Positions 7,253 through 21,561 of a DNA stretch of 24,000 bases are shown in pieces (within the stretch, counting starts at the first letter, position 1; every line of letters begins with the position of its first letter). This DNA comes from Candidatus Eiseniibacteriota bacterium. Its GTDB lineage: Bacteria; Acidobacteriota; Terriglobia; Acidiferrales; UBA7541. The translations under genes were made by a program, and so were the position numbers. The notes below the pieces were generated by a model. That model was not told the DNA's origin. It searched no databases and saw nothing but the letters and a program-made list of their open reading frames with translations. Location: contig DATIXE010000051.1 of assembly GCA_035518915.1 (NCBI GenBank), positions 5,314 to 29,313 of the forward strand, read 5' to 3'.

Positions 7253-7516
7253 TTAGACCGGTTTTTCGGGGGAAGTGGTTCCTTCCCGCAGGATTCTTTC
7301 CAGTCGCTTGTGCAGGCGCTCGCTGTAGCCCACCGGCAACTCGTAGGTGCGATCATCCGCAGTCAAAACCAGAATATTTCGCGTGGAATCCAAAATGGCG
7401 GAGCACACTTCGCAGTTTTCCAGGTGGTTCTCGATATCCGTGAGCAGGGCGGCATCCAGCTGATGGTCAAGGTACTCGGAGATGTGCTCCCAGACGTGTT
7501 TGCACTCCAGCTTCAT
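7253..7516 (-). CDS. Soluble zinc-binding (ZAS, zf-HC2) anti-sigma factor
   Basis: 87-aa ORF whose ATG overlaps the stop codon of the upstream sigma gene (ATGA). It has an H-x3-C-x2-C motif (HLENCEVC) and a Cys 26 residues upstream of that His. There is no hydrophobic segment. Confidence 0.85.
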   Translation of the reverse strand: MKLECKHVWEHISEYLDHQLDAALLTDIENHLENCEVCSAILDSTRNILVLTADDRTYELPVGYSERLHKRLERILREGTTSPEKPV

Positions 7517-8142
7517 CCGAAGAACCTCCCGAAAAAGCCCTTTCTGGCCGGCACGGCGGTTTTCAAATAAGGAGCCAGAAGCTTCTGCAGCATCATGCGA
7601 GCCCGGTGCAGCCGTACTTTGACCAGATTAATACTTATGCCCAGTGCGGCGGCAGTTTCCACCTGGTTGAGTTCCTCAAGGTCACGCAGGACCAAAACCT
7701 CTCGATAAAGGGGCGGCAGATGGTCCACCGCTTCCCGTAATTTCAATCGCAACTCCTTCTTCTCGAGGGCTGCGGAAGGAATTTCGCGCCAGTCGGTGAG
7801 AACCGCAGGCGTGAAATCCCCTTCCTTCTCCGCGATCATTTCTTCGAGCGAATCCTGAGGGACGAGTTTCGCCCTGCGGAGCCGCTGCCGGGCTTCGTTC
7901 ATGGCGATGGTCACGAGCCAGGTGCTGAATTTCGCATCGCCCCGGAAACCCTTCAAGTGGCGAAAGGCGCTAATCATCACGTCCTGGGCCGCATCCTCCG
8001 CTTCGGCCTCATTCCTCAGCATGGTGAAAACGGTCACGTAGACCAGCTTTTCATAAGGCCGTACGAGTTCATGGAAAAGGTTGGTTTCGCCCGCGAGGAT
8101 GCGGGCGATGAGTTCCTTCTCCTGCTCGGTAGCTGCCGGCAT
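7513..8142 (-). CDS. ECF-family RNA polymerase sigma-70 factor
   Basis: 209-aa ORF. Region 2 is LFHELVRPYEKLVYVTVFTMLRNEAEAEDAAQDVMISAFRHLKGFRGDAKFSTWLVTIAMNEA. Region 4 is LPPLYREVLVLRDLEELNQVETAAALGISINLVKVRLHRARMML. It is translationally coupled to the anti-sigma gene. Confidence 0.93.
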   Translation of the reverse strand: MPAATEQEKELIARILAGETNLFHELVRPYEKLVYVTVFTMLRNEAEAEDAAQDVMISAFRHLKGFRGDAKFSTWLVTIAMNEARQRLRRAKLVPQDSLEEMIAEKEGDFTPAVLTDWREIPSAALEKKELRLKLREAVDHLPPLYREVLVLRDLEELNQVETAAALGISINLVKVRLHRARMMLQKLLAPYLKTAVPARKGFFGRFFG

Positions 8143-8408: not shown

Positions 8409-8873
8409 ATGAGGGCCATAGTGAAAAGAGCGATCGTGCTGACGATGCTGCTTTGGGGATTTCCGGCGCTTCCGCAGGGCGGAAAGACGTTGCAGAACCT
8501 GGATAGAAATGGAGTGGCCATTCAGGGGTACGATCCGGTGGCGTTTTTCACCCAGAACAAGCCCGTGAAGGGGGACAAGCGCTTTGAAAGTACTTACAAG
8601 GGCGCAACGTATTACTTTGTGTCGGGGGAAGACAAAGCGGCCTTCGACGCATCTCCGGGGAAGTACGAGCCTGAGTTCGGAGGATTCTGCGCGTATGGGG
8701 TTTCCAGGGGGAAGCTCGTGCCGGTGGATGTACAAGCATTCCAGATTGTCAACGGCAAGCTGTTACTCCAGTACGACCTCGACATCAAAGAGAAATTCAA
8801 CAAGGACCAGGCCGGCAATCTGGACAAGGCGAACCAGAATTGGCCGCAGCTGGTGGAAAAGAAAGGCCGCTAA
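8409..8873 (+). CDS. YHS-domain-containing exported protein (Cys form of a family I recall as containing selenoprotein members)
   Basis: 154-aa ORF with GGGGAAG before the ATG and the signal peptide MRAIVKRAIVLTMLLWGFPALPQG. It contains AIQGYDPVAFF..KG..YKGATYYFVSGEDKAAFDASPGKYEPEFGGFCAYGV, the typical YHS-domain pattern with a single conserved Cys. Confidence 0.82.
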   Translation: MRAIVKRAIVLTMLLWGFPALPQGGKTLQNLDRNGVAIQGYDPVAFFTQNKPVKGDKRFESTYKGATYYFVSGEDKAAFDASPGKYEPEFGGFCAYGVSRGKLVPVDVQAFQIVNGKLLLQYDLDIKEKFNKDQAGNLDKANQNWPQLVEKKGR

Positions 8874-8930: not shown

Positions 8931-9320
8931 ATGGGGACTAGCATTTTGAGCTGGATTTTGCGCCTGATTGCCGCAGTCATTTTGTTACAGACTTTGTTTT
9001 TCAAGTTCACCGGGGCTCCAGAGTCCATCTACATCTTCACAAAGGTGGGGGCCGAGCCTTGGGGGCGCATTGGTTCAGGTATCGTTGAACTTGTCGCGGC
9101 CATACTGCTTCTTTGGCCGCGATTCACTTGGCTCGGTTCGGCTCTGGCGCTGGGGATGATGGCCGGTGCAATCGTGAGTCACCTGACGGTGCTCGGGATT
9201 GAAGTCCAAGGGGATAAGGGGCTCCTGTTCGGGTTGGCACTGACCGTTTTTATTGCCTCGGCCATCAACTTGTTTCTCCATCGAGCGGAAATTCCAGTGA
9301 TCGGCGGGAGGCTGGCATGA
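8931..9320 (+). CDS. DoxX-family membrane protein
   Basis: 129-aa ORF with GGGAGAGGA before the ATG. It has four hydrophobic helices, and ILRLIAAVILLQTLFFKFTG..G..ELVAAILLLWPR..GAIVSHL resembles DoxX/DoxX-like proteins. Confidence 0.78.
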   Translation: MGTSILSWILRLIAAVILLQTLFFKFTGAPESIYIFTKVGAEPWGRIGSGIVELVAAILLLWPRFTWLGSALALGMMAGAIVSHLTVLGIEVQGDKGLLFGLALTVFIASAINLFLHRAEIPVIGGRLA

Positions 9321-9901
9321 ACCGGGCGATGGCAGGCGTGGCGAGAACTCCGGAAGCGGAGCCGGCGGCGGTTGGTTCGGACTTGCCGGAGTTGGTCGCT
9401 GCCGCAGGGGAAGTGCTCCAGCAAGGGCTGAATTTGCTTTCCCGGCTGGACGACGAGAAATATTCACGGATCGCGAGAGACCCCTTTAACGCCTCGGTCG
9501 GCGGGCATTACCGCCATGTGCTGGAACACTTCCAGTGCCTGATCGAAGGGATGTCCCAAAGAGTCGTCAACTACGACGCGCGGCGGAGAAATCCGCGCAT
9601 CGAGAACGAAGTGGGCTATGCGTCCGCTTCCACGGGCGAAGTTTTGAGGATTCTTCGAGGCTGGCGCGGAGAGACATTGCAGCAATCGTGCAAAACAATG
9701 AGTAGCGTCGGGTATCATTCCGGGCTTCCGGCGACAATCGATTCCAACGCCGGGCGAGAACTGGCCTACTGCGCAGCCCATGCGGTACACCATTTCGCCA
9801 TCATCCGCTTGATCTGCAACGAAGTGGGGATTGAAGTCTCCAAGGAATTCGGATACGCGCCTTCGACACTAAAGCACCAATCTTTGCTCGCCGCCGATTA
9901 G
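9317..9901 (+). CDS. Hypothetical cytoplasmic protein, DinB/YfiT-like helical-bundle candidate (His-rich motifs)
   Basis: 194-aa ORF whose ATG overlaps the DoxX stop (ATGA). GGHYRHVLEHFQCLIEG and YCAAHAVHHFAIIRLI look like the spaced His ligands of DinB-superfamily proteins. The assignment is by eye and tentative. Confidence 0.55.
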   Translation: MNRAMAGVARTPEAEPAAVGSDLPELVAAAGEVLQQGLNLLSRLDDEKYSRIARDPFNASVGGHYRHVLEHFQCLIEGMSQRVVNYDARRRNPRIENEVGYASASTGEVLRILRGWRGETLQQSCKTMSSVGYHSGLPATIDSNAGRELAYCAAHAVHHFAIIRLICNEVGIEVSKEFGYAPSTLKHQSLLAAD

Positions 9902-9912
9902 TGGGGAATCGA

Positions 9913-11526
9913 ATGAGCCTCCTGCCGTTACAAGTTAGTGGGAGTGTCGCAACGGCGATTGCCATCATTGTGGGAGCATTCGTCTCCGAGGATGCCGCTA
10001 CGATTACCGCGGCAACTCTAGCTGCGGGCAGCGTACTTGATCCCCGGCTTTCTTTTTTCAGCGCAGCTACTGGCTTGTGGGCGGGTGACCTTGGCGTATA
10101 CGCGGTGGCGCGCATTTGGGGCGAGAAGGCGCGTCGCACCTCGTGGCTGGGGCGCGCGGCCTCCTCGGCCGAGCAGGCGACTGCTGGTACGGCTGGCGGC
10201 TGGGCTTTGGCGCTGAGCCGATTTTTCCCTGGGGCACGGTTGCCCGCGTATGTTGCGGCAGGTCTAAATCGAATGCCGTTTCCTCGTTACGCGGGGATTA
10301 CGGCGCTGACGGCGTCGATCTGGACGTCCATCGTTTTCACCGCGATCTGGTTGTTCCCTGGTCAGGCGCAGACGGCTCGAGAACGGCTTGCGCAGGTAGG
10401 GATGGCGGGTTTGACGATTTTCGGGATTGTGTTTCTTTGGAAACGATTCGGCCATCACTTGCAGTTCTCATTGCGGAATCTCTGGCAGCGCGTGACACGT
10501 TGGGAGTTCTGGCCACCGTGGCTTTTCTACACTCCCGTGGCGTTGATGTGCGCCTGGCTGAGCGCGCGATTCCGCGGCATTTCCCTTCCGACCGTCGCCA
10601 ATCTGAATCAGAAAAACGGCGGGATCATTGGAGAATCCAAATACGAGATCTTGCGCGAACTGATGGAAAGCTCCCCGGAGGCCACGGCCGCCGCTTATTT
10701 GATTCCTGCCGGAGGTGACGAAGTCCGGTTTGGGAGGATTCAGGATCTCCTGGCCCGGCACGAGATTTCGTTCCCCTTCGTCTTGAAACCAGACACGGCG
10801 CAGCGAGGCGCGGGCTTCCGAAAAATCCGTTCGCTGGGCGAAGTGCAGGAATATCTGCAGCGGATTTCGCAGTCGCTGGTTCTGCAAAGATATGTGCAAG
10901 GCCCGCAGGAGGCGGGAATTTTCTATTACCGGTTTCCGGGACAACTTGAGGGGCAGATTTTCGGCATTACCCGAAAACGGTTTCCCGTGCTGGCCGGGGA
11001 TGGAATTCATTCCCTCAAGCAGCTGGTCGAATTGGATGATCGAGCGCGCTTCCTCCGTGGCGTTTACCTGAAACGCCTGGGCGCAGAGGCGAAACGAGTT
11101 CCCGCCGCGGGCGAACTTGTGAGACTGGTGGAAGCCGGAAACCACTGTCAGGGCTGCATCTTTGAGGACGGGTGGGACCTTGATTCCGAGGAGTTGCGCC
11201 GGGCGATGGACCGGATCAGCCTGCCACTGAACGGGTTCTATGTCGGGCGGTTCGACGTGCGTTATACCGATGACGACTCGCTGCGTGCCGGGAAAGGCTT
11301 CCAGGTGATTGAGTTGAATGGGGCTGCCTCGGAAGCCACGAATCTCTACGATGCAAAGAACTCCCTGTGGGCCGCCTATCGCACTCTATACCGCCAGTGG
11401 CGGCTGATTTACGCGATCGGTGCGGAAAATCGGAAGCGCGGTGCGGTGCCGCGCGCGGCGCTCAGTGTCTGGCGCGACTGGCGGGAGTTTTCATCGCATG
11501 CTTGCGAATTCCCTATCGCAGATTGA
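9913..11526 (+). CDS. Fusion protein: N-terminal DedA/VTT (SNARE-associated) membrane domain plus C-terminal ATP-grasp ligase domain
   Basis: I prefer ATG 9913 (GGGGA 5 nt upstream) over GTG 9901. The N-terminal part has FVSEDAATITAATLAAG, GLWAGDLGVYAVARIWG and LSRFFPGARLPAYVAAGLNRMPF (DedA-like), followed by two more TM segments. The C-terminal part has FPFVLKPDTAQRGAGF, LVLQRYV, GDGIHSL and FQVIELNGAASEATNLYD (ATP-grasp carboxylate-amine ligase pattern). Confidence 0.8.
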   Translation: MSLLPLQVSGSVATAIAIIVGAFVSEDAATITAATLAAGSVLDPRLSFFSAATGLWAGDLGVYAVARIWGEKARRTSWLGRAASSAEQATAGTAGGWALALSRFFPGARLPAYVAAGLNRMPFPRYAGITALTASIWTSIVFTAIWLFPGQAQTARERLAQVGMAGLTIFGIVFLWKRFGHHLQFSLRNLWQRVTRWEFWPPWLFYTPVALMCAWLSARFRGISLPTVANLNQKNGGIIGESKYEILRELMESSPEATAAAYLIPAGGDEVRFGRIQDLLARHEISFPFVLKPDTAQRGAGFRKIRSLGEVQEYLQRISQSLVLQRYVQGPQEAGIFYYRFPGQLEGQIFGITRKRFPVLAGDGIHSLKQLVELDDRARFLRGVYLKRLGAEAKRVPAAGELVRLVEAGNHCQGCIFEDGWDLDSEELRRAMDRISLPLNGFYVGRFDVRYTDDDSLRAGKGFQVIELNGAASEATNLYDAKNSLWAAYRTLYRQWRLIYAIGAENRKRGAVPRAALSVWRDWREFSSHACEFPIAD

Positions 11527-11529
11527 GTT

Positions 11530-12279
11530 ATGTGTACTCTGAGCTTTTTGCCGGTACATGGTGGCTACGTGGCGGCGATGAACCGCGATGAAGAGCGCGC
11601 GCGGCCTTTAGCGCTGCTCCCAGCTGTTCATTCAATCGGCGAGTTGAACGCTCTCTACCCCAGGGAAGCTGGCGGGGGGACGTGGATCGGAGCGAACGGC
11701 GCGGGCACTCTATTCGGGCTGCTGAACTGGTATGCCAGAGAAACGGAGAATCTCCCGAAAAAAGCGAGGTCCCGCGGCGAGGTCATTCCGCATCTGCTGG
11801 GAGATCTGGATGCGGCAACTTCGGAACGTGCGTTGTGGCAGCTGGATCTCGAGGGAATCCATCCGTTCCGCTTGATTGGTGTTTATCCCGGGGAGCGGCA
11901 AATCCGGGAATGGCGCTGGGACGCACGGCAGCTGGTCCATAAATCTCATGATTGGGGACGGCAGCACTGGTTCTCCTCCAGCCGTTCCGATACCATCGCG
12001 GAACGGGAGCGCGGAGCGGCGTGCGAACGCACGTGGAGGGGGGAGCCAAACGATCCGGCAATCTGGCTTCGCACGCTGCACTCCGGCCATATCCCCGAGC
12101 CAGGACCGTTTTCAATTTGCGTCCATCGTGCAGACGCGGCTACGGTCAGCTACACGGAAGTGATTTGGGATGGCACCCAACTCCAGATGCGCTACCTGGC
12201 AGGAAATCCTTGCCAAGCCGTGGAAATGCCCGGAGCATGGACGCTCCCTGTTTCCGCCAGCGCGCCGGGACGCGGATAG
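11530..12279 (+). CDS. NRDE-family (TANGO2-like) protein
   Basis: 249-aa ORF starting 3 nt after the previous stop codon. It has the N-terminal MC, the family-defining AMNRDE motif, GGTWIGANGAGTLFGLLN and SRGEVI. Confidence 0.88.
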   Translation: MCTLSFLPVHGGYVAAMNRDEERARPLALLPAVHSIGELNALYPREAGGGTWIGANGAGTLFGLLNWYARETENLPKKARSRGEVIPHLLGDLDAATSERALWQLDLEGIHPFRLIGVYPGERQIREWRWDARQLVHKSHDWGRQHWFSSSRSDTIAERERGAACERTWRGEPNDPAIWLRTLHSGHIPEPGPFSICVHRADAATVSYTEVIWDGTQLQMRYLAGNPCQAVEMPGAWTLPVSASAPGRG

Positions 12280-12323: not shown

Positions 12324-12357
12324 CCGCCAAGGAGAGTTCCGGGAAGGATTGGCGTCC

Positions 12358-13047
12358 ATGAAAGACAAGGTTGTTTTCATCACCGGCGCGAATGGAGGAC
12401 TCGGAGGTTCCGTAACGCGGGCATTTTTGCAAGCAGGCGCGAGAGTCATTGGGAGCTCGCTGCGCATCACTGCTGCGGACTTTCCGGAACCCAATTTTGA
12501 AGCCATGAGAATGGACTTCAATCAGCTTGAAGAGATTCGCCGCGGGGTGAGCAAACTTATTGAGCGATATGGCCGATTAGACGTGCTAGTGCACGTGCTG
12601 GGCGGATTCGCCGGCGGCCCCACGGTGGCGGAAACTCCCGATTCCATGTGGGAACAGATGCAGGGTCTTAATCTGACGGCCGCGTTTAAGGTATTCCGCG
12701 AATGCATTCCGCATCTTCGGAAGTCCGGGGCTGGCAGGCTTATCGCGATCGGCAGCTTGACGGCGGCGCAGCCGCACGCCCATCTGGGAGCGTACGTGGT
12801 CTCGAAGGCCGCGCTTGCGATGCTGGTGCGAACGGTTGCGCTGGAAAACGCCGACGCTAGCTTGACTGCGAATGTAATTCTGCCTGGAACGATGGATACT
12901 CCCGCAAACAGAAAATCCATGCCCGACGCAGATTTTTCAAAATGGGTGAAGACGCGGGATGTTGCGGAAATCGTATTGTCGCTGGCAGGCGAAGGCGGAA
13001 AGCATCTCACGGGCCTAGAAATCCCCATCGAGGGCGGACATGGCTGA
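12358..13047 (+). CDS. Short-chain dehydrogenase/reductase (SDR) family oxidoreductase
   Basis: It has VVFITGANGGLGGSV (TGxxxGxG), an NVL-type region, S..YVVSKAAL (YxxxK) and PGTMDTP. I prefer ATG 12358 (GGAAGGA upstream) to the TTG at 12349 given in the ORF track. Confidence 0.9.
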   Translation: MKDKVVFITGANGGLGGSVTRAFLQAGARVIGSSLRITAADFPEPNFEAMRMDFNQLEEIRRGVSKLIERYGRLDVLVHVLGGFAGGPTVAETPDSMWEQMQGLNLTAAFKVFRECIPHLRKSGAGRLIAIGSLTAAQPHAHLGAYVVSKAALAMLVRTVALENADASLTANVILPGTMDTPANRKSMPDADFSKWVKTRDVAEIVLSLAGEGGKHLTGLEIPIEGGHG

Positions 13048-13282
13048 ACGTGTCGCCGGATGGGTGATCTGGGGCATGTACACCTATGTGCTGGCCGGAA
13101 GTATTTTTGCGGGATGTTTTGTTGCTCGCGGCGTGCAGAAGGTGGATTCGGAGGCGCGAAGTGCAGGGATCGGCTTTCGATTGCTGATTTTTCCCGGAGC
13201 GGTGGCGTTCTGGGCTCTATTACTGAAGCGGTGGGTCGCAGCGGCGGGTGAACCGCCGGGAGAGAGGAACCCGCACCAATGA
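13040..13282 (+). CDS. Small membrane protein (80 aa, 2 predicted TM segments), unknown function
   Basis: Its ATG overlaps the SDR stop codon by 8 nt (ATGGCTGA). It has two hydrophobic helices (WVIWGMYTYVLAGSIFAGCFV and FRLLIFPGAVAFWALLL). Third codon positions are G/C-rich in this frame. Confidence 0.65.
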   Translation: MAERVAGWVIWGMYTYVLAGSIFAGCFVARGVQKVDSEARSAGIGFRLLIFPGAVAFWALLLKRWVAAAGEPPGERNPHQ

Positions 13283-13479
13283 TTCAGCCGCTCCGAACCG
13301 TGCATCGGCAAGTGTTCCTGTTGCTCACGCTGGCGCTTCCCCTCTTGTTTGTCGCGGGGATTCGGGCGCGGCACTGGGTGCTGACGCCGAAACCCGAATC
13401 CGGACAGCGCGCTCTTGCGGCGCCGAAGACGCGGAAGGAATTGGCCGCCACGGCTGCTCGCGGAGAGGGGCGGCCGTGA
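13279..13479 (+). CDS. Small membrane protein (66 aa, 1 predicted TM segment), unknown function
   Basis: It has an ATGA overlap with the previous gene and a GTGA overlap with the next. The TM helix is VFLLLTLALPLLFVAGI. Third-position G/C bias favours this frame over the competing 13248 frame. Confidence 0.55.
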   Translation: MIQPLRTVHRQVFLLLTLALPLLFVAGIRARHWVLTPKPESGQRALAAPKTRKELAATAARGEGRP

Positions 13480-14516
13480 GTCACGGATATGTGGCAGTCG
13501 GATGGAACGCGCAGAAGCGCGGGTACGATGTGACACTGGCGTGTGGAGTAATTTTGTACGTTGGAACTTTTGTCGGGCTAAGCGCAGTGCTGTATCCAAC
13601 GGCGACTGCGGAAACGCTTCTGATCCGCGCCTTGGGGTCCTGCGCATTTCTGATGCTCAATGTCGTGTTGTGCATTGGTCCGCTCTGCCGCCTGGATTCG
13701 AGATTTCTGCCGCTTCTCTATAACCGGCGGCATCTAGGCGTGACGACATTTCTTCTGGGCCTGGGACATGGCGCTTTCGGACTGATTCAATTTCACAGGC
13801 TGGGAAACATGGATCCCCTGCTCAGCCTGTTCACCGCAAATCGAAATTATTTCAGCCTGGCCGATTTCCCGTTTCAGCCGCTTGGTTTTCTGGCCTTAAT
13901 CATCCTGTTCCTGATGGCGGCCACGAGTCATGACTTCTGGTTGCGCAACCTGACGCCTCCCGTCTGGAAGAGCTTGCACATGCTGGTCTATTTGGCTTAC
14001 GCGCTGCTGGTGGCTCACGTCACTCTGGGACTGTTGCAATCGGAACGGAGCCGATGGCTAGTGGGAGCAATGGCGATCAGTTTGTCCGCCGTAATTTCGC
14101 TGCACCTGGCCGCGGCGCTGCGTGAGCGGAAAACGGACGATGCGAGACTCTCGCCCAGCGGCACGGGCTACTTGGCTGCATGCCCAGTCGAGGAAATCCC
14201 CGAAAAATACGCAAAAGTCGTTTCCGTTCATGGGGAGCGGGTGGCGATCTTCAAATTCGATGGGAAGATCTGCGCGCTTTCCAACGTCTGCCGGCACCAG
14301 AATGGCCCGCTGGGCGAGGGAAAGATCGTGGACGGTTGCGTGACGTGTCCATGGCACGGGTATCAATATTTGCCGGAATCCGGCGCTTCGCCGCCACCAT
14401 TCACCGAGAAGGTCTCCACGTTTCGGACGAAGCTCGCGGATGGCATGGTCTGGCTGGACCCGAATCCTCTGCCGCCGGGAAGTCGTGTGGAACCATCCAG
14501 GATTGAAAGCGTCTGA
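13476..14516 (+). CDS. Fusion protein: ferric-reductase-like (MsrQ/YedZ-type, dihaem b) 6-TM domain plus C-terminal Rieske [2Fe-2S] domain
   Basis: I chose GTG 13476 (GTGA coupling) because the ORF-track start at 13248 adds an Arg/Ala-rich, non-membrane extension that overlaps the two mini genes. There are six TM segments with conserved His residues (RRHLGV, LGLGHGAF, TSHDFW, SLHMLVYLAYALLVAHV). The C-terminus has CRHQNGPL...CPWHGYQY, which is the Rieske C-x-H / C-x2-H pair. Confidence 0.85.
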   Translation: MSHGYVAVGWNAQKRGYDVTLACGVILYVGTFVGLSAVLYPTATAETLLIRALGSCAFLMLNVVLCIGPLCRLDSRFLPLLYNRRHLGVTTFLLGLGHGAFGLIQFHRLGNMDPLLSLFTANRNYFSLADFPFQPLGFLALIILFLMAATSHDFWLRNLTPPVWKSLHMLVYLAYALLVAHVTLGLLQSERSRWLVGAMAISLSAVISLHLAAALRERKTDDARLSPSGTGYLAACPVEEIPEKYAKVVSVHGERVAIFKFDGKICALSNVCRHQNGPLGEGKIVDGCVTCPWHGYQYLPESGASPPPFTEKVSTFRTKLADGMVWLDPNPLPPGSRVEPSRIESV

Positions 14517-14525
14517 GGGATACGC

Positions 14526-15278
14526 ATGAAGGAGTTTTACATCGGGTATCTGCCCAGCGCTCCGCCCGCGATTCGCAGGCGCGTGGGGATTCTTGTGGGA
14601 CTAATTGTTCTGTTTGGCGTTGCCAGCGGGGCCTTGTTTGCGGTTGCCCAAAGCGGATTCGCGAAATCCTATTTTGAATTCGGAAAGCCAAGGGAATTTA
14701 CCGGAGTGCTGCGCCGGCACCCGTTTCCTACGTTGGTTGCGGACGACACGATTCGCGAAGGAAGTTCCTCGCCTTCCGTTTATCTTCTGGTGGCTCCCGG
14801 GAAATTTGGGGCCGATTCTCTCGTGGGCGGCAAGGATGATTGGCATGTCCGGCTGCGGGGAACGCGGATCCATCGCACGGAAGGGGAAATGATCGAGATC
14901 GAACCCGGATCCATTGTGGAAACGCCAGACTCGCGAACTTCCGCATCCCTGGAACGCGATTTGGGATATGCGCGACTATCGGGCGAGATCGTGGACACGA
15001 AATGCTACCTGGGCGTGATGAATCCTGGTGAAGGGAAAGTGCACCGTGAATGCGCAGCCCTGTGCTTAAGGGGCGGCATCCCTCCGGCTCTGGTTTCTTC
15101 AGATTTAGATGGCAAGCCGCGACTGTTTATCCTGATTGGTCCAGAGGGCGAACCGATGGCTAAAGAGGATTACTTACAACGCGTTGGACAGCCAGTTTCG
15201 ATGGAAGGCCGCATCGTGGAGAAGGATCAACTCTATTATCTGCAAGCCGATCCAGCCAGCATCGTGGCGCTTCCATAG
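14526..15278 (+). CDS. N-terminally membrane-anchored protein of unknown function with C-x12-H-x2-C-x3-C motif
   Basis: 250-aa ORF with GAGGGA 5 nt before the ATG. It has a single N-terminal TM segment (RRRVGILVGLIVLFGVASGALFAV). The C-terminal region GEIVDTKCYLGVMNPGEGKVHRECAALCLRGGIPP..GQPVSMEGRIVEKDQLYYL resembles the 109-aa secreted protein at 2312-2641. Confidence 0.75.
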   Translation: MKEFYIGYLPSAPPAIRRRVGILVGLIVLFGVASGALFAVAQSGFAKSYFEFGKPREFTGVLRRHPFPTLVADDTIREGSSSPSVYLLVAPGKFGADSLVGGKDDWHVRLRGTRIHRTEGEMIEIEPGSIVETPDSRTSASLERDLGYARLSGEIVDTKCYLGVMNPGEGKVHRECAALCLRGGIPPALVSSDLDGKPRLFILIGPEGEPMAKEDYLQRVGQPVSMEGRIVEKDQLYYLQADPASIVALP

Positions 15279-16249: not shown

Positions 16250-17161
16250 CTAGTGGCGGATCGTCAAGACGGGGCACCGCGCTTGGCAGGCGAGCCTGTA
16301 AGCGACGGCCGAAGGTAATTCTCCGGTCGCGTGCTTTCCAGAGCGCATTCCGATGACGATCAAGTCGGAATTGGCTTCCCGCGCGTATTCGAGAATCTGT
16401 TCGCTGGGTTCGCCAACGCGCACCTGGAAGGATGCGGCGGTCTTTTCTGCCCAAGGTGAAGGGATGCCTTTTTTCATTCGCTGAACAAGGAAATCGCGCA
16501 CGATCTCGCGGCCGGCAGTCTGGGGATCCTCTCGATCCTCCACGACGTGAAGGACGGTTAACTCCGCGCCATGTTCGCTTTCCAGACCATACGCGAGAGC
16601 GGCAGCGCGTTCCGCGTGCGGCTTGAAATTAGTGGCATACAGGATTTTGCGGAGTTCGGTGGAGCTGGCGGGAGAAGTCTCCGCACGCATCCCCACTGTG
16701 AGAATCGGCCGTTCCGCAACTCGAAAAATCTCCTCGGCCACTGGGCCCAGTAACTGCTTCTTCGCTTGAGTGTGTCCGTGAGTTCCCAGCACGATCAGAT
16801 CGATTGAATTAGCGACCGTGAATTCCTGCAACGCCGGCCAAACTCTCTCGCCGCATAGAATCTCCGACCGTAGTTGCTCGGCGCAGCCAGTCTCTTCCAC
16901 CAGGCGTTGCATTTCTGCGCCGGCGACGGCTTTGGCCTGACGCGCGGCTTCTTCCGGGCCTACAGACGATACGTAGCGAAGAAGGCCTGACGGTATGGCA
17001 TGCACCAGAAAAATCCTGCTATCGAAATGCCGGGCGAGCGGGAGCGCGCACTGCAACGCAGCCCGGGCGCCCGCGGAAAAATCCGTGGCAACCAAGATTC
17101 TCTGGAAATTGACGCCCGAGGTCGCCAAGGCGTTTTTTGCGGTGAGTCCGCCAGTTGACAT
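16250..17161 (-). CDS. Universal stress protein, tandem UspA domains
   Basis: 303-aa ORF with two Usp repeats. The first is ILVATDFS..LVHAI..DLIVLGTHGH..LLGPVAEEIFRVAERPILTV. The second is ILYATNF..LTVLHVV..DLIVIGMRSG..LPSAVAYRLACQARCPVLTI. Confidence 0.9.
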   Translation of the reverse strand: MSTGGLTAKNALATSGVNFQRILVATDFSAGARAALQCALPLARHFDSRIFLVHAIPSGLLRYVSSVGPEEAARQAKAVAGAEMQRLVEETGCAEQLRSEILCGERVWPALQEFTVANSIDLIVLGTHGHTQAKKQLLGPVAEEIFRVAERPILTVGMRAETSPASSTELRKILYATNFKPHAERAAALAYGLESEHGAELTVLHVVEDREDPQTAGREIVRDFLVQRMKKGIPSPWAEKTAASFQVRVGEPSEQILEYAREANSDLIVIGMRSGKHATGELPSAVAYRLACQARCPVLTIRH

Positions 17162-17222: not shown

Positions 17223-17384
17223 ATGCCACGGTTCAAGCTTGTAACTGATTGATACTAAGGCAGGTAGGTGGCTTGTTGTAATGCCTCTGCGGGCGCTTGG
17301 GCCAGATGACCCATTCGGCGTGGAATTTCACGCTTTGCGCGAGTGCCGCCGGTTTCTGGCCTTGGGCGAGAACACTTGCCCCCG

Positions 17385-17413
17385 TTGGGGAGCATTGGGG
17401 CCAGTGGTATTAT
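17385..17413 (+). promoter_or_regulatory. Candidate sigma-70-type extended -10 promoter that would give a leaderless kinase mRNA
   Basis: TTGGGG (17385-17390), then 17 nt ending in TGg, then TATTAT (17408-17413). The -10 hexamer ends 7 nt before ATG 17421, and there is no Shine-Dalgarno sequence in front of that ATG. Confidence 0.3.
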
Positions 17414-17420
17414 CCTCAGG

Positions 17421-18707
17421 ATGTCCGCGCCCGAGCCGACTCGTTTGCCGTTGGAAAGCTTCGTCGACGAGATGAAGCGGTATCTTCATCTGTTGCCCGA
17501 GGATGCCGCGCTGCTGAAGGAACTTCGTCCGCTCATGGAAAAATACCTTCCGGAAATGGCGGAGAGGTTTTATGCGCAGATTCCCCATCATCCGGGAGCG
17601 AGCCGGGTATTCACTGGCGGCGAAGCGCAGGTGCAGCGCCTTAAATCGACCTTACAGGTTTGGGGCCGCGGTCTGTTCAACGGCGTATACGACGAAGACT
17701 ATGCCGAGGACCGGTATCGCATCGGCTTCCGCCACGTGCGGATCACCCTCGATCAGAAATACGTTATCAGCGCCATGGGCGTGGTGCGGGCGTTCCTGAT
17801 GGAAAAGCTTTTCGACGAGTTTCCGGCGCGCGAGCAGCGGCTGGCCTACTCGCAGGCGCTCGGGAAAATCCTGGATCTCGACCTCAACCTGATGTGCGAT
17901 TCGTATTTCCGCGCTACGATGGCGCACCTGCACACGCTCAATCAGGAACTGGAACAGGCGAGCGCGCAGCTTGCCGAAGCCAACGCAATCAAGGATGAGT
18001 TCCTCGCGCAAGTGTCCCACGACCTGCGCACGCCGCTAAACTCCATCCTGAGTTTTACCAAGATGGTTCTGGACGGGTTTTGCCGGGACCCGGAAGAGGA
18101 AAAGGAGGTACTGCGCGACGTTTTTAGTAGCGGACAGTTACTACTGCGGCTGGTAAATGATCTGTTGGACATTTCGGCGATCGAAGCGGGCAAGCTGGCT
18201 CTGGATCTCGAGGAAATCGAGCCACGTACGGTGTTGGATTCGACATTGCCGCTGGTGGCCATTCAAGCCGCCTCCAAGAATATCCGACTGATTGACGAGA
18301 CGCTGGATCAGACGCTACCGACAGTCAAGAGCGACGAGATCCGTTTTCGCCAGGTGCTTCTGAATTTGCTTTCGAACGCAGTGAAGTTCACGGCGCAAGG
18401 ATATGTGCTGGTCCGGGCGTTACATAATAAACACGAACGGCATTTGCGAATCGAGATTGAAGACACGGGGATCGGTGTTCCGATAGAGAAACGCAACGTT
18501 GTATTCGAAAAATTTGTGCGGCACGACCCGAAAGCGCTGCGTGGAGTCACCGGTTCGGGCCTGGGGTTGGCTATCGCCAAGAGACTTGTTGAAATGATGC
18601 AAGGAAAGATTGGATTGGAGGCCGGGCCAGGAGGTAAAGGCTCCGTCGTGTGGTTTACGCTGCCGCTGGCGACACCCATGTCGACGCCGGAGGCACCCGA
18701 CCGGTGA
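17421..18707 (+). CDS. Globin-coupled sensor histidine kinase (protoglobin/sensor-globin domain + HisKA + HATPase_c)
   Basis: The N-terminal domain aligns by eye with HemAT-type sensor globins: MAERFYAQI (distal Tyr), VQRLKSTLQVWGRGLFNGVYDEDYAEDRYRIGFRHVRITLDQKYVISAM (proximal His in RHVRI). It is followed by a coiled coil, the H-box FLAQVSHDLRTPLNSI, the N-box LLNLLSNAVKF, and the G-boxes DTGIGV and GSGLGLAI. I prefer ATG 17421 to GTG 17343. Confidence 0.88.
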   Translation: MSAPEPTRLPLESFVDEMKRYLHLLPEDAALLKELRPLMEKYLPEMAERFYAQIPHHPGASRVFTGGEAQVQRLKSTLQVWGRGLFNGVYDEDYAEDRYRIGFRHVRITLDQKYVISAMGVVRAFLMEKLFDEFPAREQRLAYSQALGKILDLDLNLMCDSYFRATMAHLHTLNQELEQASAQLAEANAIKDEFLAQVSHDLRTPLNSILSFTKMVLDGFCRDPEEEKEVLRDVFSSGQLLLRLVNDLLDISAIEAGKLALDLEEIEPRTVLDSTLPLVAIQAASKNIRLIDETLDQTLPTVKSDEIRFRQVLLNLLSNAVKFTAQGYVLVRALHNKHERHLRIEIEDTGIGVPIEKRNVVFEKFVRHDPKALRGVTGSGLGLAIAKRLVEMMQGKIGLEAGPGGKGSVVWFTLPLATPMSTPEAPDR

Positions 18708-19126
18708 ACCGAGATACGCAACCCTTGCGCGGGAACCGCATCCTCATTGTGGAGGATAATGCCTTGGTGGCCAAATTCTTCCGCATGGCTCTGGAACGCG
18801 CAGGGGGATGCGAGTGCATCATCTCCGAGGACGTTCCTGAGATTCTCAGCCATGTTGCTGCAGGAGAAGTCGACCTGGTTTTGCTAGACGTGTCGCTAAC
18901 GAATTCGGAGTGGAAAGGCCAGGCGATTAACGGCATCGAGCTTTGCCGCCTACTGAAAGAGAGATCAACTCGACGATTGCCGGTGCTGCTGGCCACGGCG
19001 CACGCAATGAGTGGCGACCGCGAACGTTTTCTGGAATCCTCCGGCGCGGACGGATATCTTGAAAAGCCGGTGTACGATTCCTCTGTGCTCGTCGAGAAGG
19101 TCCGCAGCCTCATCAACCCCTCCTGA
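18704..19126 (+). CDS. Single-domain response regulator (receiver only)
   Basis: GTG 18704 overlaps the kinase stop codon (GTGA). The receiver features are RILIVEDN, DLVLLDVSL (phospho-acceptor Asp), LPVLLATAH and GYLEKP. Confidence 0.87.
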   Translation: MNRDTQPLRGNRILIVEDNALVAKFFRMALERAGGCECIISEDVPEILSHVAAGEVDLVLLDVSLTNSEWKGQAINGIELCRLLKERSTRRLPVLLATAHAMSGDRERFLESSGADGYLEKPVYDSSVLVEKVRSLINPS

Positions 19127-19263: not shown

Positions 19264-21561
19264 ATGCTGGCCGTTCCAGTATTGTTACTTCTAGGCCTCG
19301 ATCTGTTGATTTTCATCGCGGCAGGTCTCCTCTGGGATATTTCTCCTCAGAAAAAAGAAAACCTCCTGCTTTCCGGCCTGTTCCTGTGTTCTGGAATGCC
19401 TGCGCTGATATACCAGGTGGTTTGGCAACGCGCGCTGTTCGCGATCTATGGGGTGAACGCCGAATCTGTGGCCGCGGTTGTCAGCGCGTTCATGTTGGGA
19501 TTGGGTCTGGGCGGGCTGCTTGGCGGATGGCTTTCTTCGCGGTTCCCCAGACTGGCGCTCATCTTGTTCGGTTTGTCGGAGCTAGGCGTCGCCGTATTCG
19601 GTCTGCTGTCGCTGCGGATCTTCCATTGGGTCGCCACGCTCACCGCAGGCGCTGGCTTGCCCTCGGTAATCGTATTTTCCATTCTTCTCCTGATATTTCC
19701 CACTCTCCTGATGGGAGCGACACTGCCGTTGCTGGTAGAACATTTCGTCTCGCGTTCCGGGCGAGTTGGTCTTTCCGTTTCGCGGCTGTACTTCGCCAAT
19801 ACCCTAGGTTCCGCGATTGCCTGCTACGTTTGCGCGACTTTTCTATTGCGTGCTTTCGGTCAGAGTGGTTCGGTCACGATGGCAGCCTGTCTGAACACCA
19901 TAGTTGGCGCTTCCGCTTATCTCTACGGGCGTCGCGCCCAGGCTCAAGGGCAGGTTGTCCATGAATTCGCCTCCGAAACAGCGGGAGCGCCTCCTGCGAT
20001 TAAGCTGCCGACCGCCCTGCTGCTGGCCGCCCTCTCCGGTTTCCTGGGTCTTGGATTCGAAATCGTCTGGTTTCGTGTGTTTTCACTGGCTTCCTCCGAT
20101 CGTGCCCCGGCTTTTGCCTTGCTCCTGGCGACCTATCTTGGAGGAATTGCAGCTGGCGCTTACGTGTCCGAGAAATTAACGGAGCGCGCCGACTCGCAGG
20201 ACGTATTACGCACGATGGGAATTCTGTTGCTGGCTTCTGGAGCGCTATCTCCATTCCTTCCGCCGATGGTGGCCCAGCTCGTACACAGAAACATTTCCTA
20301 TCTCTGGAGCGCGCCAGCCTTTTTCGCCATCGCCGCGATGACCGGAAGCGTGCTACCGCTCCTCTGTCAGGTTTCTGTTGCTGCCGATAAGGAAGCTGGG
20401 CGCCACGTGAGCCTGATCTATGCTGCAAACATTGCGGGCGCGGTTGCCGGTAGCCTGGGGATCGGGTTCGCATGGCTACAAGTCTTCGGATTGCGCGCGG
20501 TGTGTTTGCAGCTCGCGGCGCTGGGCGCGATCACAGGCGTCATCGTCCTCTGCTTGGCTCAACAAGCCAATTTCCGGAAACCGGCCTGGATCTGGGGATT
20601 GGTTCTAGTGTGCTTCACTCTGATTCCTCTTGCAGAGGGACAATATCATTTGCTTTTTGAACGGCTCATTTTTGGAGATCGTCCAGAATCCGGGTTGGAT
20701 TTCGCGCACATCGTGGAAGGACGGAATGGGGTCATCTGTGTTACGGGAGACGGCGCCGTCTTCGGCGAGGGAGTGTATGACGGGCATTTCAATATCAACC
20801 CCCTACATGATGTGAATTATGTCGTTCGTGCCTATGCCGTCCTCGGAGTGCATCCATCACCGAAGCGCATGCTGATGATTGGGCTGGCGTCCGGTTCCTG
20901 GGGGCAAATCTTTGCGAATGATCCGCGAGTTTCGCATTTCGACGTCGTGGAAATCAATCCAGGCTACCTCAAGCTGATTCCACAATACGCTGCAATTCGA
21001 TCGTTACTTTCAAACCCAAAAGTGAGCGTATACATTGACGACGGCCGGAGATGGGTGATAGCCCATCCAAATGAAAAATACGACCTTATCGTCGTAAACT
21101 CGACCTATCACTGGAGAAATCACAGCACAACGCTGCTTTCCAGAGAGTTTCTTCGATTGATTCGGCAACACCTGAATCCTGGCGGGATCTATTATTTCAA
21201 CACGACGGAATCGAACGAATCGATGGCCACGGCGCTGAGCGTGTTTCCTCACGGTTTGCGGATCATAAACTTCCTGGCCGTGAGCGATTCTCCGATCGCT
21301 CTGGACCGCGAACGGTGGCTTCAGGAAATGATCGCGTTCCGCATTGACAACGACGAAGTGTTTAAGCCAGAGGCACCGGAAGGACAGAGAGTTCTTGCGG
21401 CGTATAGCGCGCTTGCAGAGACGGTTCACGCGCCCCCCCGCTTCCTCAGCCTGGAGAGCGGAGCCTCCTTGCGCGCACGGCTCGGGAGCTTGAGGATCAT
21501 CACCGATGACAATATGGGAAGCGAATGGGAGTCCAGGAGTGAGATGCCCTGGCGTCAATGA
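19264..21561 (+). CDS. Fused polytopic membrane domain / spermidine-synthase-like (class I methyltransferase fold) protein
   Basis: 765-aa ORF. The N-terminal two thirds are multi-TM with PALIYQVVWQRALFAIYGVNAESVAAVVSAFMLGLGLGG and a second EIVWFRVFSLA repeat. The C-terminus has MLMIGLASGSWGQ, DVVEINPGY, VYIDDGRRWV, YDLIVVNST and LNPGGIYYFNTT, as in SpeE-like aminopropyltransferases. Confidence 0.87.
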   Translation: MLAVPVLLLLGLDLLIFIAAGLLWDISPQKKENLLLSGLFLCSGMPALIYQVVWQRALFAIYGVNAESVAAVVSAFMLGLGLGGLLGGWLSSRFPRLALILFGLSELGVAVFGLLSLRIFHWVATLTAGAGLPSVIVFSILLLIFPTLLMGATLPLLVEHFVSRSGRVGLSVSRLYFANTLGSAIACYVCATFLLRAFGQSGSVTMAACLNTIVGASAYLYGRRAQAQGQVVHEFASETAGAPPAIKLPTALLLAALSGFLGLGFEIVWFRVFSLASSDRAPAFALLLATYLGGIAAGAYVSEKLTERADSQDVLRTMGILLLASGALSPFLPPMVAQLVHRNISYLWSAPAFFAIAAMTGSVLPLLCQVSVAADKEAGRHVSLIYAANIAGAVAGSLGIGFAWLQVFGLRAVCLQLAALGAITGVIVLCLAQQANFRKPAWIWGLVLVCFTLIPLAEGQYHLLFERLIFGDRPESGLDFAHIVEGRNGVICVTGDGAVFGEGVYDGHFNINPLHDVNYVVRAYAVLGVHPSPKRMLMIGLASGSWGQIFANDPRVSHFDVVEINPGYLKLIPQYAAIRSLLSNPKVSVYIDDGRRWVIAHPNEKYDLIVVNSTYHWRNHSTTLLSREFLRLIRQHLNPGGIYYFNTTESNESMATALSVFPHGLRIINFLAVSDSPIALDRERWLQEMIAFRIDNDEVFKPEAPEGQRVLAAYSALAETVHAPPRFLSLESGASLRARLGSLRIITDDNMGSEWESRSEMPWRQ

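Follow-up and report, generated by a model that had tools for sequence, protein, structure and literature searches.

A DedA/VTT–ATP-grasp fusion with TANGO2-family and aminolipid-synthase-like neighbors: a candidate membrane-embedded amide ligase

A 24,000-nucleotide (nt) stretch of contig DATIXE010000051.1 (assembly GCA_035518915.1), which we will call the window, encodes a protein that joins a DedA/VTT membrane domain to an ATP-grasp carboxylate-amine ligase domain. The open reading frame (ORF) for this fusion is at 9901/9913..11526 on the + strand and gives 541 amino acids (aa) from a GTG or 537 aa from an ATG. The ATG, at 9913, is preceded by GGGGAA, and the stop codon of a DinB_2 gene (9899-9901) lies 11 nt before it. 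On the other side, a spacer of 3 nt separates the TGA of the fusion (11524-11526) from the ATG (11530) of a gene for an NRDE/TANGO2-family protein. This spacing and the Met-Cys start of the NRDE protein agree with a first-pass annotation, which was made from the DNA sequence without database searches. The motifs that it quoted are all present: FVSEDAA (residues 23-29), GDLGVY (58-63), RFFPGARLP..AG (103-117), KPDTAQRGAGF (292-302), and VIELNGAASEATNLYD (465-480) in the fusion, and MC..AMNRDE..GGTWIG in the NRDE protein. The center of the locus is arranged as follows:

8931..9320, + strand: DoxX-family membrane protein (Pfam DoxX, E = 2.8e-7); overlaps the start of the DinB_2 gene and is an operon-mate here
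9317..9901, + strand: DinB_2-superfamily protein, 194 aa (Pfam DinB_2, E = 3.6e-7); immediately 5' of the fusion
9913..10500, + strand: DedA/VTT membrane domain, residues 1-196 of the fusion (Pfam VTT_dom, above the gathering score)
10501..10569, + strand: Trp/Pro-rich hydrophobic hairpin, residues 197-219 of the fusion, WEFWPPWLFYTPV... (conserved residues)
10570..11526, + strand: ATP-grasp carboxylate-amine ligase domain, residues 220-537 of the fusion (Foldseek, PDB profile, invariant residues)
11530..12279, + strand: NRDE/TANGO2-family protein, 249 aa, with a Met-Cys N terminus (Pfam TANGO2)

We considered that the fusion might be an artifact of assembly or gene calling, or that these genes are adjacent by chance, and we rate this as extremely improbable. 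There is no frameshift in the gene, and the identical 537-aa protein is encoded, with the same neighbors, by 12 independent soil-metagenome contigs. We used a word-indexed search to look for homologs, and more than 2,200 were full length, at ~537-540 aa. With the ATP-grasp domain alone as the query, an exhaustive search (clustered at 50% identity) gave 2,703 clusters at E ≤ 1e-3, of which 1,074 were at E ≤ 1e-30. The architecture recurs in about 1,000 clusters, which come from Acidobacteriota, Verrucomicrobiota, Planctomycetota, Gemmatimonadota, and other groups. The motif at the junction of the domains is invariant, and the neighbors are kept across phyla. Taken together, these results exclude an artifact.

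The closest named relatives are from Candidatus Acidoferrum/Acidoferrales (Acidobacteriota). In their source databases, homologs are annotated as 'DedA', 'VTT domain-containing protein', or 'alpha/beta fold hydrolase'.

The DedA domain, the hairpin, and the ligase domain

The N-terminal part of the fusion matches Pfam's VTT_dom (PF09335) over residues 34-145 (E = 1.7e-10, 41.9 bits versus a cut-off of 33.9). The match to NCBIfam's DedA is at E = 0.0012 only. We also modeled the fusion with AlphaFold2 (48 homologs; mean predicted local distance difference test score of 79.6, and mostly 80-97 in the C-terminal domain). The Pfam match and the helix pattern in the model bear out the first-pass description of a DedA/VTT-type domain with extra transmembrane (TM) helices. 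In the model, helices 8-24/26-38 and 96-102/109-118 pair up in a way that is consistent with two re-entrant hairpins, and E26-D27 and R103..R109 are the tips of the two re-entrant loops. To quantify conservation, we used 81 sequences that represent at least five phyla; E26, D27, G58, D59, R103, P106, G107, and R109 are each conserved in at least 97% of them. The 6-residue spacing in R103-F-F-P-G-A-R109 is the same as that of R130..R136 in YqjA from Escherichia coli, whose membrane-embedded acidic and basic residues are E39/D51 and R130/R136.

More broadly, the fusion can be compared to the DedA transporters PetA from Bacillus subtilis (for phosphatidylethanolamine, PE), UptA and PA4029 from Pseudomonas aeruginosa (for undecaprenyl phosphate, C55-P), and YqjA. 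All have two re-entrant loops, with acidic residues in the first loop and R-F-x-P-x-x-R in the second. Unlike these transporters, the fusion has a short N-out start, without a leading TM helix, and an enzyme at its C terminus, on the cytoplasmic side.

Positive charges in the loops suggest how the protein is arranged in the membrane. Averaged across the 81 sequences, the number of lysines plus arginines (K+R) is 0.75 in loop 39-45, 7.6 in 67-95, 0.9 in 149-158, and 6.3 in 178-196. Because of these counts, we predict that the DedA part has two re-entrant loops and three TM helices and is oriented N-out/C-in. If so, then the ATP-grasp domain is cytoplasmic, as its use of ATP requires. We rejected a topology with four TM crossings, which would make the hydrolase that is fused to some homologs (see below) topologically impossible; the re-entrant model fits the charges.

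Between the two domains is the hairpin, W197-E-F-W-P-x-W..Y..P. Its residues W197, E198, F199, W200, P201, W203, Y206, and P208 are at least 97% conserved, and the segment is hydrophobic with basic flanks at both ends. It is probably a monotopic membrane anchor at the entrance to the ligase. The hairpin is kept in shorter forms of ~350-390 aa that lack the DedA domain (P0129, P0137, P0162, and P0190), which argues for a membrane-resident substrate.

The ligase domain is not recognized by the curated families. When we compared the ~340 C-terminal residues to Pfam's ATP-grasp families, there was no match at E ≤ 10, except for Ins134_P3_kin at E = 0.31. No NCBIfam model matches the fusion at threshold; the model for cyanophycin synthetase gives 22.7 bits versus a cut-off of 850. 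Searching the sequences in PDB with the single sequence (phmmer) gave E = 0.1, and a profile of close homologs gave E = 0.08. A profile built from 42 diverse C-terminal domains did match: cyanophycin synthetase 2 (7ta5) at E = 7.6e-9, CphA1 at 4.6e-8, GshAB at 4.2e-6, and D-Ala-D-Ala ligase (Ddl) at 4.8e-5. The alignment of this profile to CphA1 and CphA2 spans the KP lysine, the GDG..T..eLI segment, and the E-x-N motif. Using Foldseek to compare the model to PDB structures gave the same relatives, with E = 2.6e-8 for CphA1, 4.4e-8 for GshAB, and 6.6e-8 for Ddl, and a probability of 1.0. There were 288 chains at E ≤ 0.001, and the matches to cyanophycin synthetase 1, GshAB, and D-Ala-D-Ala ligases were at E values of ~1e-8 to 1e-6.

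The residues that are expected to bind ATP are intact. The motifs for the ATP and Mg2+ ligands (the KP lysine, the glycine-rich loop, R-x-D, and E-x-N) align with those of CphA1 and CphA2, and K292, R298, G299, Q325, E333, R446, D448, E467, and N469 are invariant or at least 97% conserved. The first-pass annotation had described a cytoplasmic carboxylate-amine ligase of the ATP-grasp type, and the fold, the profile matches, the invariant residues, and the predicted topology all agree with it. As no curated ATP-grasp model matches, the domain appears to be an undescribed subfamily that lacks a Pfam or NCBIfam model. Given the invariant motifs and the profile and fold matches, the domain looks catalytically competent. 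It is a member of the CphA-G/GshB/Ddl branch, in which the enzymes activate the alpha-carboxylate of amino acids.

CphA and GshAB phosphorylate the alpha-carboxylate of an amino acid or a peptide and then add the amine of an amino acid. The fusion shares the ATP-grasp fold with the G domain of CphA1/CphA2 and with GshAB, and it shares the KP lysine, the glycine-rich loop, GDG..T..eLI, R-x-D, and E-x-N. However, they are just 15-18% identical, and the matches are confined to the ATP-grasp (G) region: the N domain and the M (Mur-ligase-like) domain of CphA1 and the gamma-glutamylcysteine ligase domain of GshAB are not matched and are missing from the fusion. Also, the N-terminal subdomain of the ATP-grasp fold is cut to ~65 residues in the fusion and follows the hairpin and the DedA domain.

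Genes and domains that travel with the fusion

To find conserved neighbors, we scanned one genome per species, which gave 171 carriers, and examined the best 80 loci (labeled L007-L086). These 80 are all from metagenome-assembled genomes, which belong to several classes of Acidobacteriota and to Verrucomicrobiota, Planctomycetota, Gemmatimonadota, Haliangiales, and Lentisphaeria. We compared the proteins from the window to six-frame ORFs from these loci by iterative searches with hidden Markov models (HMMs). The counts are:

DinB_2 near the fusion: 54/80 loci (52/54 upstream and on the same strand)
NRDE adjoining the fusion: 52/80 loci (always on the same strand; 31 upstream, 21 downstream)
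OlsB-like near the fusion: 47/80 loci
OlsA-like near the fusion: 35/80 loci
Ferric_reduct-Rieske module near the fusion: 27/80 loci
DoxX near the fusion: 26/80 loci
ECF sigma-like gene near the fusion: 19/80 loci
YHS near the fusion: 10/80 loci

In its canonical arrangement, the cluster reads [small ORFs-Ferric_reduct/Rieske-250-aa protein]-OlsB-OlsA-DinB-NRDE-(ABH)fusion-[DoxX], where ABH is an alpha/beta-hydrolase domain. We also clustered the six-frame ORFs from the 80 loci without supervision; the clusters were mostly off-frame shadow ORFs, with families merged, and yielded no further conserved neighbor.

The NRDE gene switches sides of the fusion from locus to locus, yet the linkage is maintained. 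When the fusion comes first, the gap from stop to start is 3-16 nt (14/14 measured loci). Either an NRDE gene or an OlsB-like gene adjoins the fusion in 73/80 loci, and several of the other seven loci are on truncated contigs. A genome of several Mb has about one or two genes of the NRDE and OlsB types, so by our estimate, which is not a computed statistic, the probability of finding such genes within ±6 kb by chance would be far less than 1% at each locus. The first-pass annotation had treated conserved linkage of the fusion and NRDE genes as a point on which its reading would turn. The linkage is evident in these loci, whether the NRDE gene comes before or after the fusion, and also in proteins that contain both domains.

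These proteins emerged from a survey of domain architectures. Among the best 150 clusters, 107 have the DedA-ATP-grasp match only (including several of the ~350-390 aa forms, which start just before WEFWP). In 41 others, an alpha/beta-hydrolase domain (Pfam Abhydrolase_1, E = 1e-31) and an additional TM helix are present at the N terminus. One cluster (P0145, 1121 aa) has the arrangement NRDE-ABH-DedA-ATP-grasp, with matches to Pfam's TANGO2, Abhydrolase_1, and VTT. P0309 and P0318 have the same four domains but are encoded on other contigs, and these proteins and P0145 are only 41% identical to one another. A four-domain protein is encoded at L089:7320-10796. The four-domain polypeptides span 1121-1158 aa, with NRDE, a TM helix, ABH, DedA, and ATP-grasp in that order; the NRDE domain is N-terminal and begins with MC. 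The remaining cluster (P0237, 543 aa) is DinB_2-hairpin-ATP-grasp, without DedA, which implies that DinB_2 and the ligase cooperate directly.

In the 80 loci, the HMM searches found 28 ABH domains that are fused to DedA-ATP-grasp and 4 that are separate genes. Examples of the fused form are L038:4654-7623 and L040:4876-7551, with the motifs HGSPG, GxSMGG, D, and H. Across 102 proteins with the fused ABH domain, an average of 3.8 K+R flank the extra TM helix on its N-terminal side, compared to 1.5 K+R and 2.0 aspartates plus glutamates on its C-terminal side. From these charges, we predict that the hydrolase domain is periplasmic and that the ligase is cytoplasmic, along with the NRDE domain of the four-domain proteins.

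The NRDE protein matches Pfam's TANGO2 (PF05742; E = 1.7e-8, 35.4 bits versus a cut-off of 22.6), and a profile of 47 neighboring NRDE proteins matches the structures of human TANGO2 (8sv7 and 9bwa) at E = 7.2e-8. M1, C2, R19, D20, E21, R25, G50, W52, N66, R82, and R200 are invariant in the 47 proteins, and N18 is at least 90% conserved. With Cys at position 2, removal of the Met would expose an N-terminal nucleophile. R25 and R82 align with Arg32 and Arg88 of human TANGO2, which are two of its three anion-binding residues. Besides the equivalents of these arginines, the human protein shares Met-Cys, NRDE, GGTW, and Asn66 (Asn75 in human). In contrast to human TANGO2, the NRDE protein is bacterial, has 249 aa, is predicted to be cytoplasmic, lies in an aminolipid-type operon, and is sometimes fused to the ligase. 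Human TANGO2 is structurally a Cys-Ntn hydrolase and has been proposed to act on derivatives of fatty acids (PMC13044924), and TANGO2 binds acyl-CoA via the NRDE motif (PMC11867700). We propose that the NRDE protein is a putative cytoplasmic Cys-Ntn hydrolase or acyl-handling partner.

The loci that lack NRDE led us to the other conserved partners. In L038 (Longimicrobiales), two genes lie directly upstream of the ABH-DedA-ATP-grasp gene. One encodes a GNAT N-acyltransferase (Pfam Acetyltransf_5, PF13444, E = 2.4e-26) whose best NCBIfam model is OlsB, an L-ornithine N-alpha-acyltransferase (E = 1.4e-34). The other encodes an HX4D acyltransferase (Pfam Acyltransferase, PF01553, E = 6.6e-16) whose best NCBIfam model is OlsA, a lyso-ornithine-lipid O-acyltransferase (E = 4.3e-35). 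In Bryobacterales, in Solibacter, and on one planctomycete contig, a bifunctional synthase of the OlsF type replaces OlsB and OlsA, and the linkage thus extends to another architecture of synthase. (For the planctomycete contig, we relied on independent gene calls and precomputed Pfam matches; OlsF-like genes are in L087/L088.) The OlsF-type genes that we located are:

L032:6662-8725, L068:8590-10419, and L087:4535-6352, - strand: OlsF-type protein (HX4D acyltransferase + GNAT, ~600 aa)

A proposed role in amino-lipid modification

We propose that the fusion is a membrane-embedded, ATP-dependent ligase that forms an amide on an acyloxyacyl amino lipid of the ornithine-lipid type, which is made by OlsB/OlsA or OlsF. 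We give this about an even chance of being correct. OlsBA or OlsF would make the lipid on the cytoplasmic leaflet and would leave the carboxylate of the head group free. The WEFWP hairpin would hold the cytoplasmic ATP-grasp domain at the membrane surface, where it would phosphorylate a carboxylate and then couple an amine or an amino acid. The alpha-carboxylate of the head group is the most likely target, because CphA, GshB, and Ddl activate the alpha-carboxylate of amino acids. By analogy to PetA, UptA, and MprF, the DedA domain might present the lipid to the ligase, move the product outward, or both. In the roughly one third of lineages that have the fused alpha/beta-hydrolase, we predict that this domain faces the outer leaflet, where it would act as a hydrolase. 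The NRDE protein would be a cytoplasmic Cys-Ntn enzyme that cleaves or transfers an acyl or amide bond of the lipid or its precursor, whether for turnover, for editing, or to supply the amine. DinB_2 might be a metal-dependent accessory protein. The first-pass annotation had suggested that this locus makes and turns over an amide-linked lipid head group, and the aminolipid synthases in 47/80 related loci give independent support to this idea, in which NRDE would have a putative role in turnover.

Our proposal can be extended to the family as a whole. It might make head-group-extended amino lipids (such as dipeptide-type lipids or amide-capped, cationic lipids of the ornithine type) on the cytoplasmic side and flip them with its own DedA domain, with the NRDE proteins as Cys-Ntn amidases or acyl-transferases that act on N-acyl-amino-acid lipids. 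We consider this extended scheme to be possible, though rather doubtful.

The proposed reaction has a biochemical precedent. The ATP-dependent transfer of taurine to the carboxyl group of ornithine lipid is known, but no gene has been assigned to it, and the only modifications of ornithine lipids listed in a review from March 2026 are hydroxylation, N-methylation, and taurine transfer (PMC12971839). The taurine transferase of Gluconobacter cerinus, which forms cerilipin, would catalyze the same type of reaction, as it makes an amide on the carboxylate of an OlsBA lipid in an ATP-dependent manner (PMC12971839). However, the sequence of the G. cerinus enzyme is not known, and no homolog of the fusion from Acetobacteraceae is among the matches listed. 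DedA proteins, for their part, have been implicated in the translocation of both PE and C55-P (PMC10193950, PMC12893004).

The logic of the fusion also resembles that of MprF, the aminoacyl-phosphatidylglycerol synthase and flippase, which has partner hydrolases such as AcvB/VirJ and PA0919. In both, a cytoplasmic enzyme that acts on the head group is fused to a module that moves lipids; for our family, we predict hydrolases on both sides of the membrane. This is an analogy only, as the proteins are not homologous: MprF uses aminoacyl-tRNA and has another flippase fold, while the fusion would use an acyl-phosphate formed by ATP-grasp, together with DedA. In general scans of the proteins in the window, no MprF-family model was among the Pfam or NCBIfam matches.

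Several observations weigh against our proposal. First, the OlsB/OlsA-like proteins score 120 bits, far below the NCBIfam equivalog cut-off of 350, so the label does not fix the amino acid. Second, every homolog in our analysis comes from a metagenome-assembled genome or a metagenome. Third, only the N-terminal half of the NRDE protein aligns to TANGO2: the HMM alignment ends at around residue 120, and where equivalents of human Asn157 (oxyanion) and Lys166 would be expected, S149, S150, and R161 are conserved. The remaining points bear on specific alternatives.

The best-documented substrate of DedA proteins is C55-P rather than an aminolipid. We also considered that the fusion acts on an envelope precursor that is linked to polyprenyl phosphate. 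DedA would bind C55-P, the ATP-grasp domain would attach an amino acid or an amide to a carboxylate, and NRDE would supply ammonia or trim the product; the substrate might be the peptide of lipid II or a lipid-linked glycan that contains uronic acid. D-Ala-D-Ala ligase is among the nearest folds, and ATP-grasp enzymes modify peptidoglycan precursors and capsular uronic acids. Furthermore, some members of the DedA family are C55-P flippases (PMC12893004). Nevertheless, we think that this explanation, including these substrates, is unlikely. No gene for the synthesis of peptidoglycan, lipopolysaccharide, or glycans recurs among the conserved neighbors; the biosynthetic genes that do recur are of the OlsB/OlsA/OlsF types (47/80 loci).

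Another point is that DoxX, YHS, Ferric_reduct-Rieske, AhpC-TSA, and ECF sigma with zf-HC2 recur near the fusion and form a redox or envelope-stress theme that lies outside the aminolipid model. These neighbors would make sense if the system produced a small thiol or peptide for defense against redox stress or electrophiles, with a ligase similar to glutathione synthetase, DinB_2 as an S-transferase, NRDE as an amidase, and DedA as an exporter or an anchor. DinB_2 is indeed present, and the ATP-grasp domain of GshAB is among the top matches by both structure and sequence. But this idea seems improbable to us, as it does not explain the linkage to OlsB/OlsA/OlsF (47/80) or why the hairpin is invariant and is kept even in forms that lack DedA. 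Also, no gene for a cysteine or gamma-glutamyl ligase recurs in the cluster, and the redox genes are rarer (10-27/80) than OlsB, NRDE, or DinB.

Finally, we did not find a homolog of OlsB, OlsA, or OlsF in the 24 kb of the window, nor was there one within ±6 kb in the closest loci (L007 and L008) or in most of the loci from Verrucomicrobiota. With no synthase in the window, L007, or L008, the link to aminolipids in the window's own lineage comes from homology to its relatives. In L009 and L010, whose fusion proteins are 53% identical to the window's, OlsB is divergently upstream. Loci without a nearby OlsB would fit another reading, in which the ATP-grasp domain activates a fatty acid or hydroxy-fatty acid as an acyl-phosphate and N-acylates an amino acid, with NRDE as an acyl-transferase or hydrolase. 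This would be a different way to start the synthesis of aminolipids or N-acyl amino acids. Precedents for such chemistry include an ATP-grasp route to N-acyl histidines, which is cited in an aminolipid review (PMC11631085), and a third, ATP-dependent pathway to ornithine lipids (OlsH) in planctomycetes (PMC12971839). That TANGO2 binds acyl-CoA would fit as well. We regard this as quite unlikely. In most loci, the operon pairs the fusion with a complete OlsB and OlsA or with OlsF, which would make the activity redundant, and the G domain of CphA, GshAB, and Ddl activate the alpha-carboxylates of amino acids, not fatty acids.

In the literature on DedA, ATP-grasp, OlsB, aminolipids, TANGO2, and flippases, we did not find a description of this system, although the paper on amidoligases by Iyer et al. 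(2009) may mention the fusion. The parts are from known superfamilies, but the combination, the ATP-grasp subfamily with a membrane hairpin, and the aminolipid context appear to be undescribed. The result is a large, phylogenetically broad, and unannotated family of enzymes. It is prominent in phyla from soil, and little is known about the membrane lipids of these phyla. If our proposal for the fusion is correct, it would be the first ATP-grasp enzyme with a dedicated role on a membrane amino lipid, as well as the first DedA protein that is covalently joined to the enzyme that makes its cargo, and it would help to explain how amino lipids are modified and how they cross the inner membrane. It would also be the first type of gene for the ATP-dependent amidation of an aminolipid's carboxylate, a reaction that has been known since the 1970s and has lacked a gene for about 50 years. 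As for TANGO2, the bacterial homologs are placed in a lipid operon, and sometimes in one polypeptide with the ligase, which bears directly on the debate as to whether TANGO2, a human disease protein, handles heme or acyl groups and lipids. If the proposed role of NRDE holds up, it would provide the first genetically anchored class of substrates for the TANGO2 family.

Other genes in the window

The G+C content of the window is 58-60%. The fusion is part of a string of + strand genes with the order YHS, DoxX, DinB_2, fusion, NRDE, SDR, two small ORFs, Ferric_reduct+Rieske, a 250-aa protein, and DUF1223. The genes of this string that were not listed above, along with a divergent pair, are:

7253-8142, - strand: ECF sigma and zf-HC2 (ZAS-type) anti-sigma, divergent from the YHS-DoxX-DinB-fusion-NRDE string
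8409-8873, + strand: YHS gene, the start of the co-directional string
12349-13047, + strand: SDR (FabG-like), a member of the same string
13040..15278, + strand: small ORFs (80 and 66 aa), Ferric_reduct(TM)+Rieske, and a 250-aa protein (Pfam Ferric_reduct, Rieske)

The Ferric_reduct+Rieske protein has 346 aa and ends at 14516. The 250-aa protein has an N-terminal TM helix and does not match any family. In other loci, this four-gene module is often directly upstream of OlsB, and it is also found with an AhpC-TSA gene at L089:3517-5733. It is tied to the ligase by position only, and it might supply electrons, oxidize lipids, or repair the envelope. The neighboring sigma and anti-sigma genes suggest that the locus is controlled by envelope or redox stress.

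The start of the SDR gene is ambiguous: the ORF list has a TTG at 12349 (232 aa), while public gene calls give 229 aa and begin 9 nt downstream. An SDR gene adjoins the fusion in only 12/80 loci.

At 19264-21561 (+ strand) is a 765-aa protein with an MFS-like membrane domain and a domain similar to spermidine/spermine synthases (Pfam, E = 5.8e-7). It is conceivable that this protein provides a polyamine-type amine for the ligase. Three other features of the window are unrelated neighbors: a tandem-Usp protein (16250-17161, - strand), a protoglobin-HisKA-HATPase sensor kinase with a response regulator (17343-19126, + strand), and a GlnD-like uridylyltransferase with ACT domains (21654-23984, - strand).

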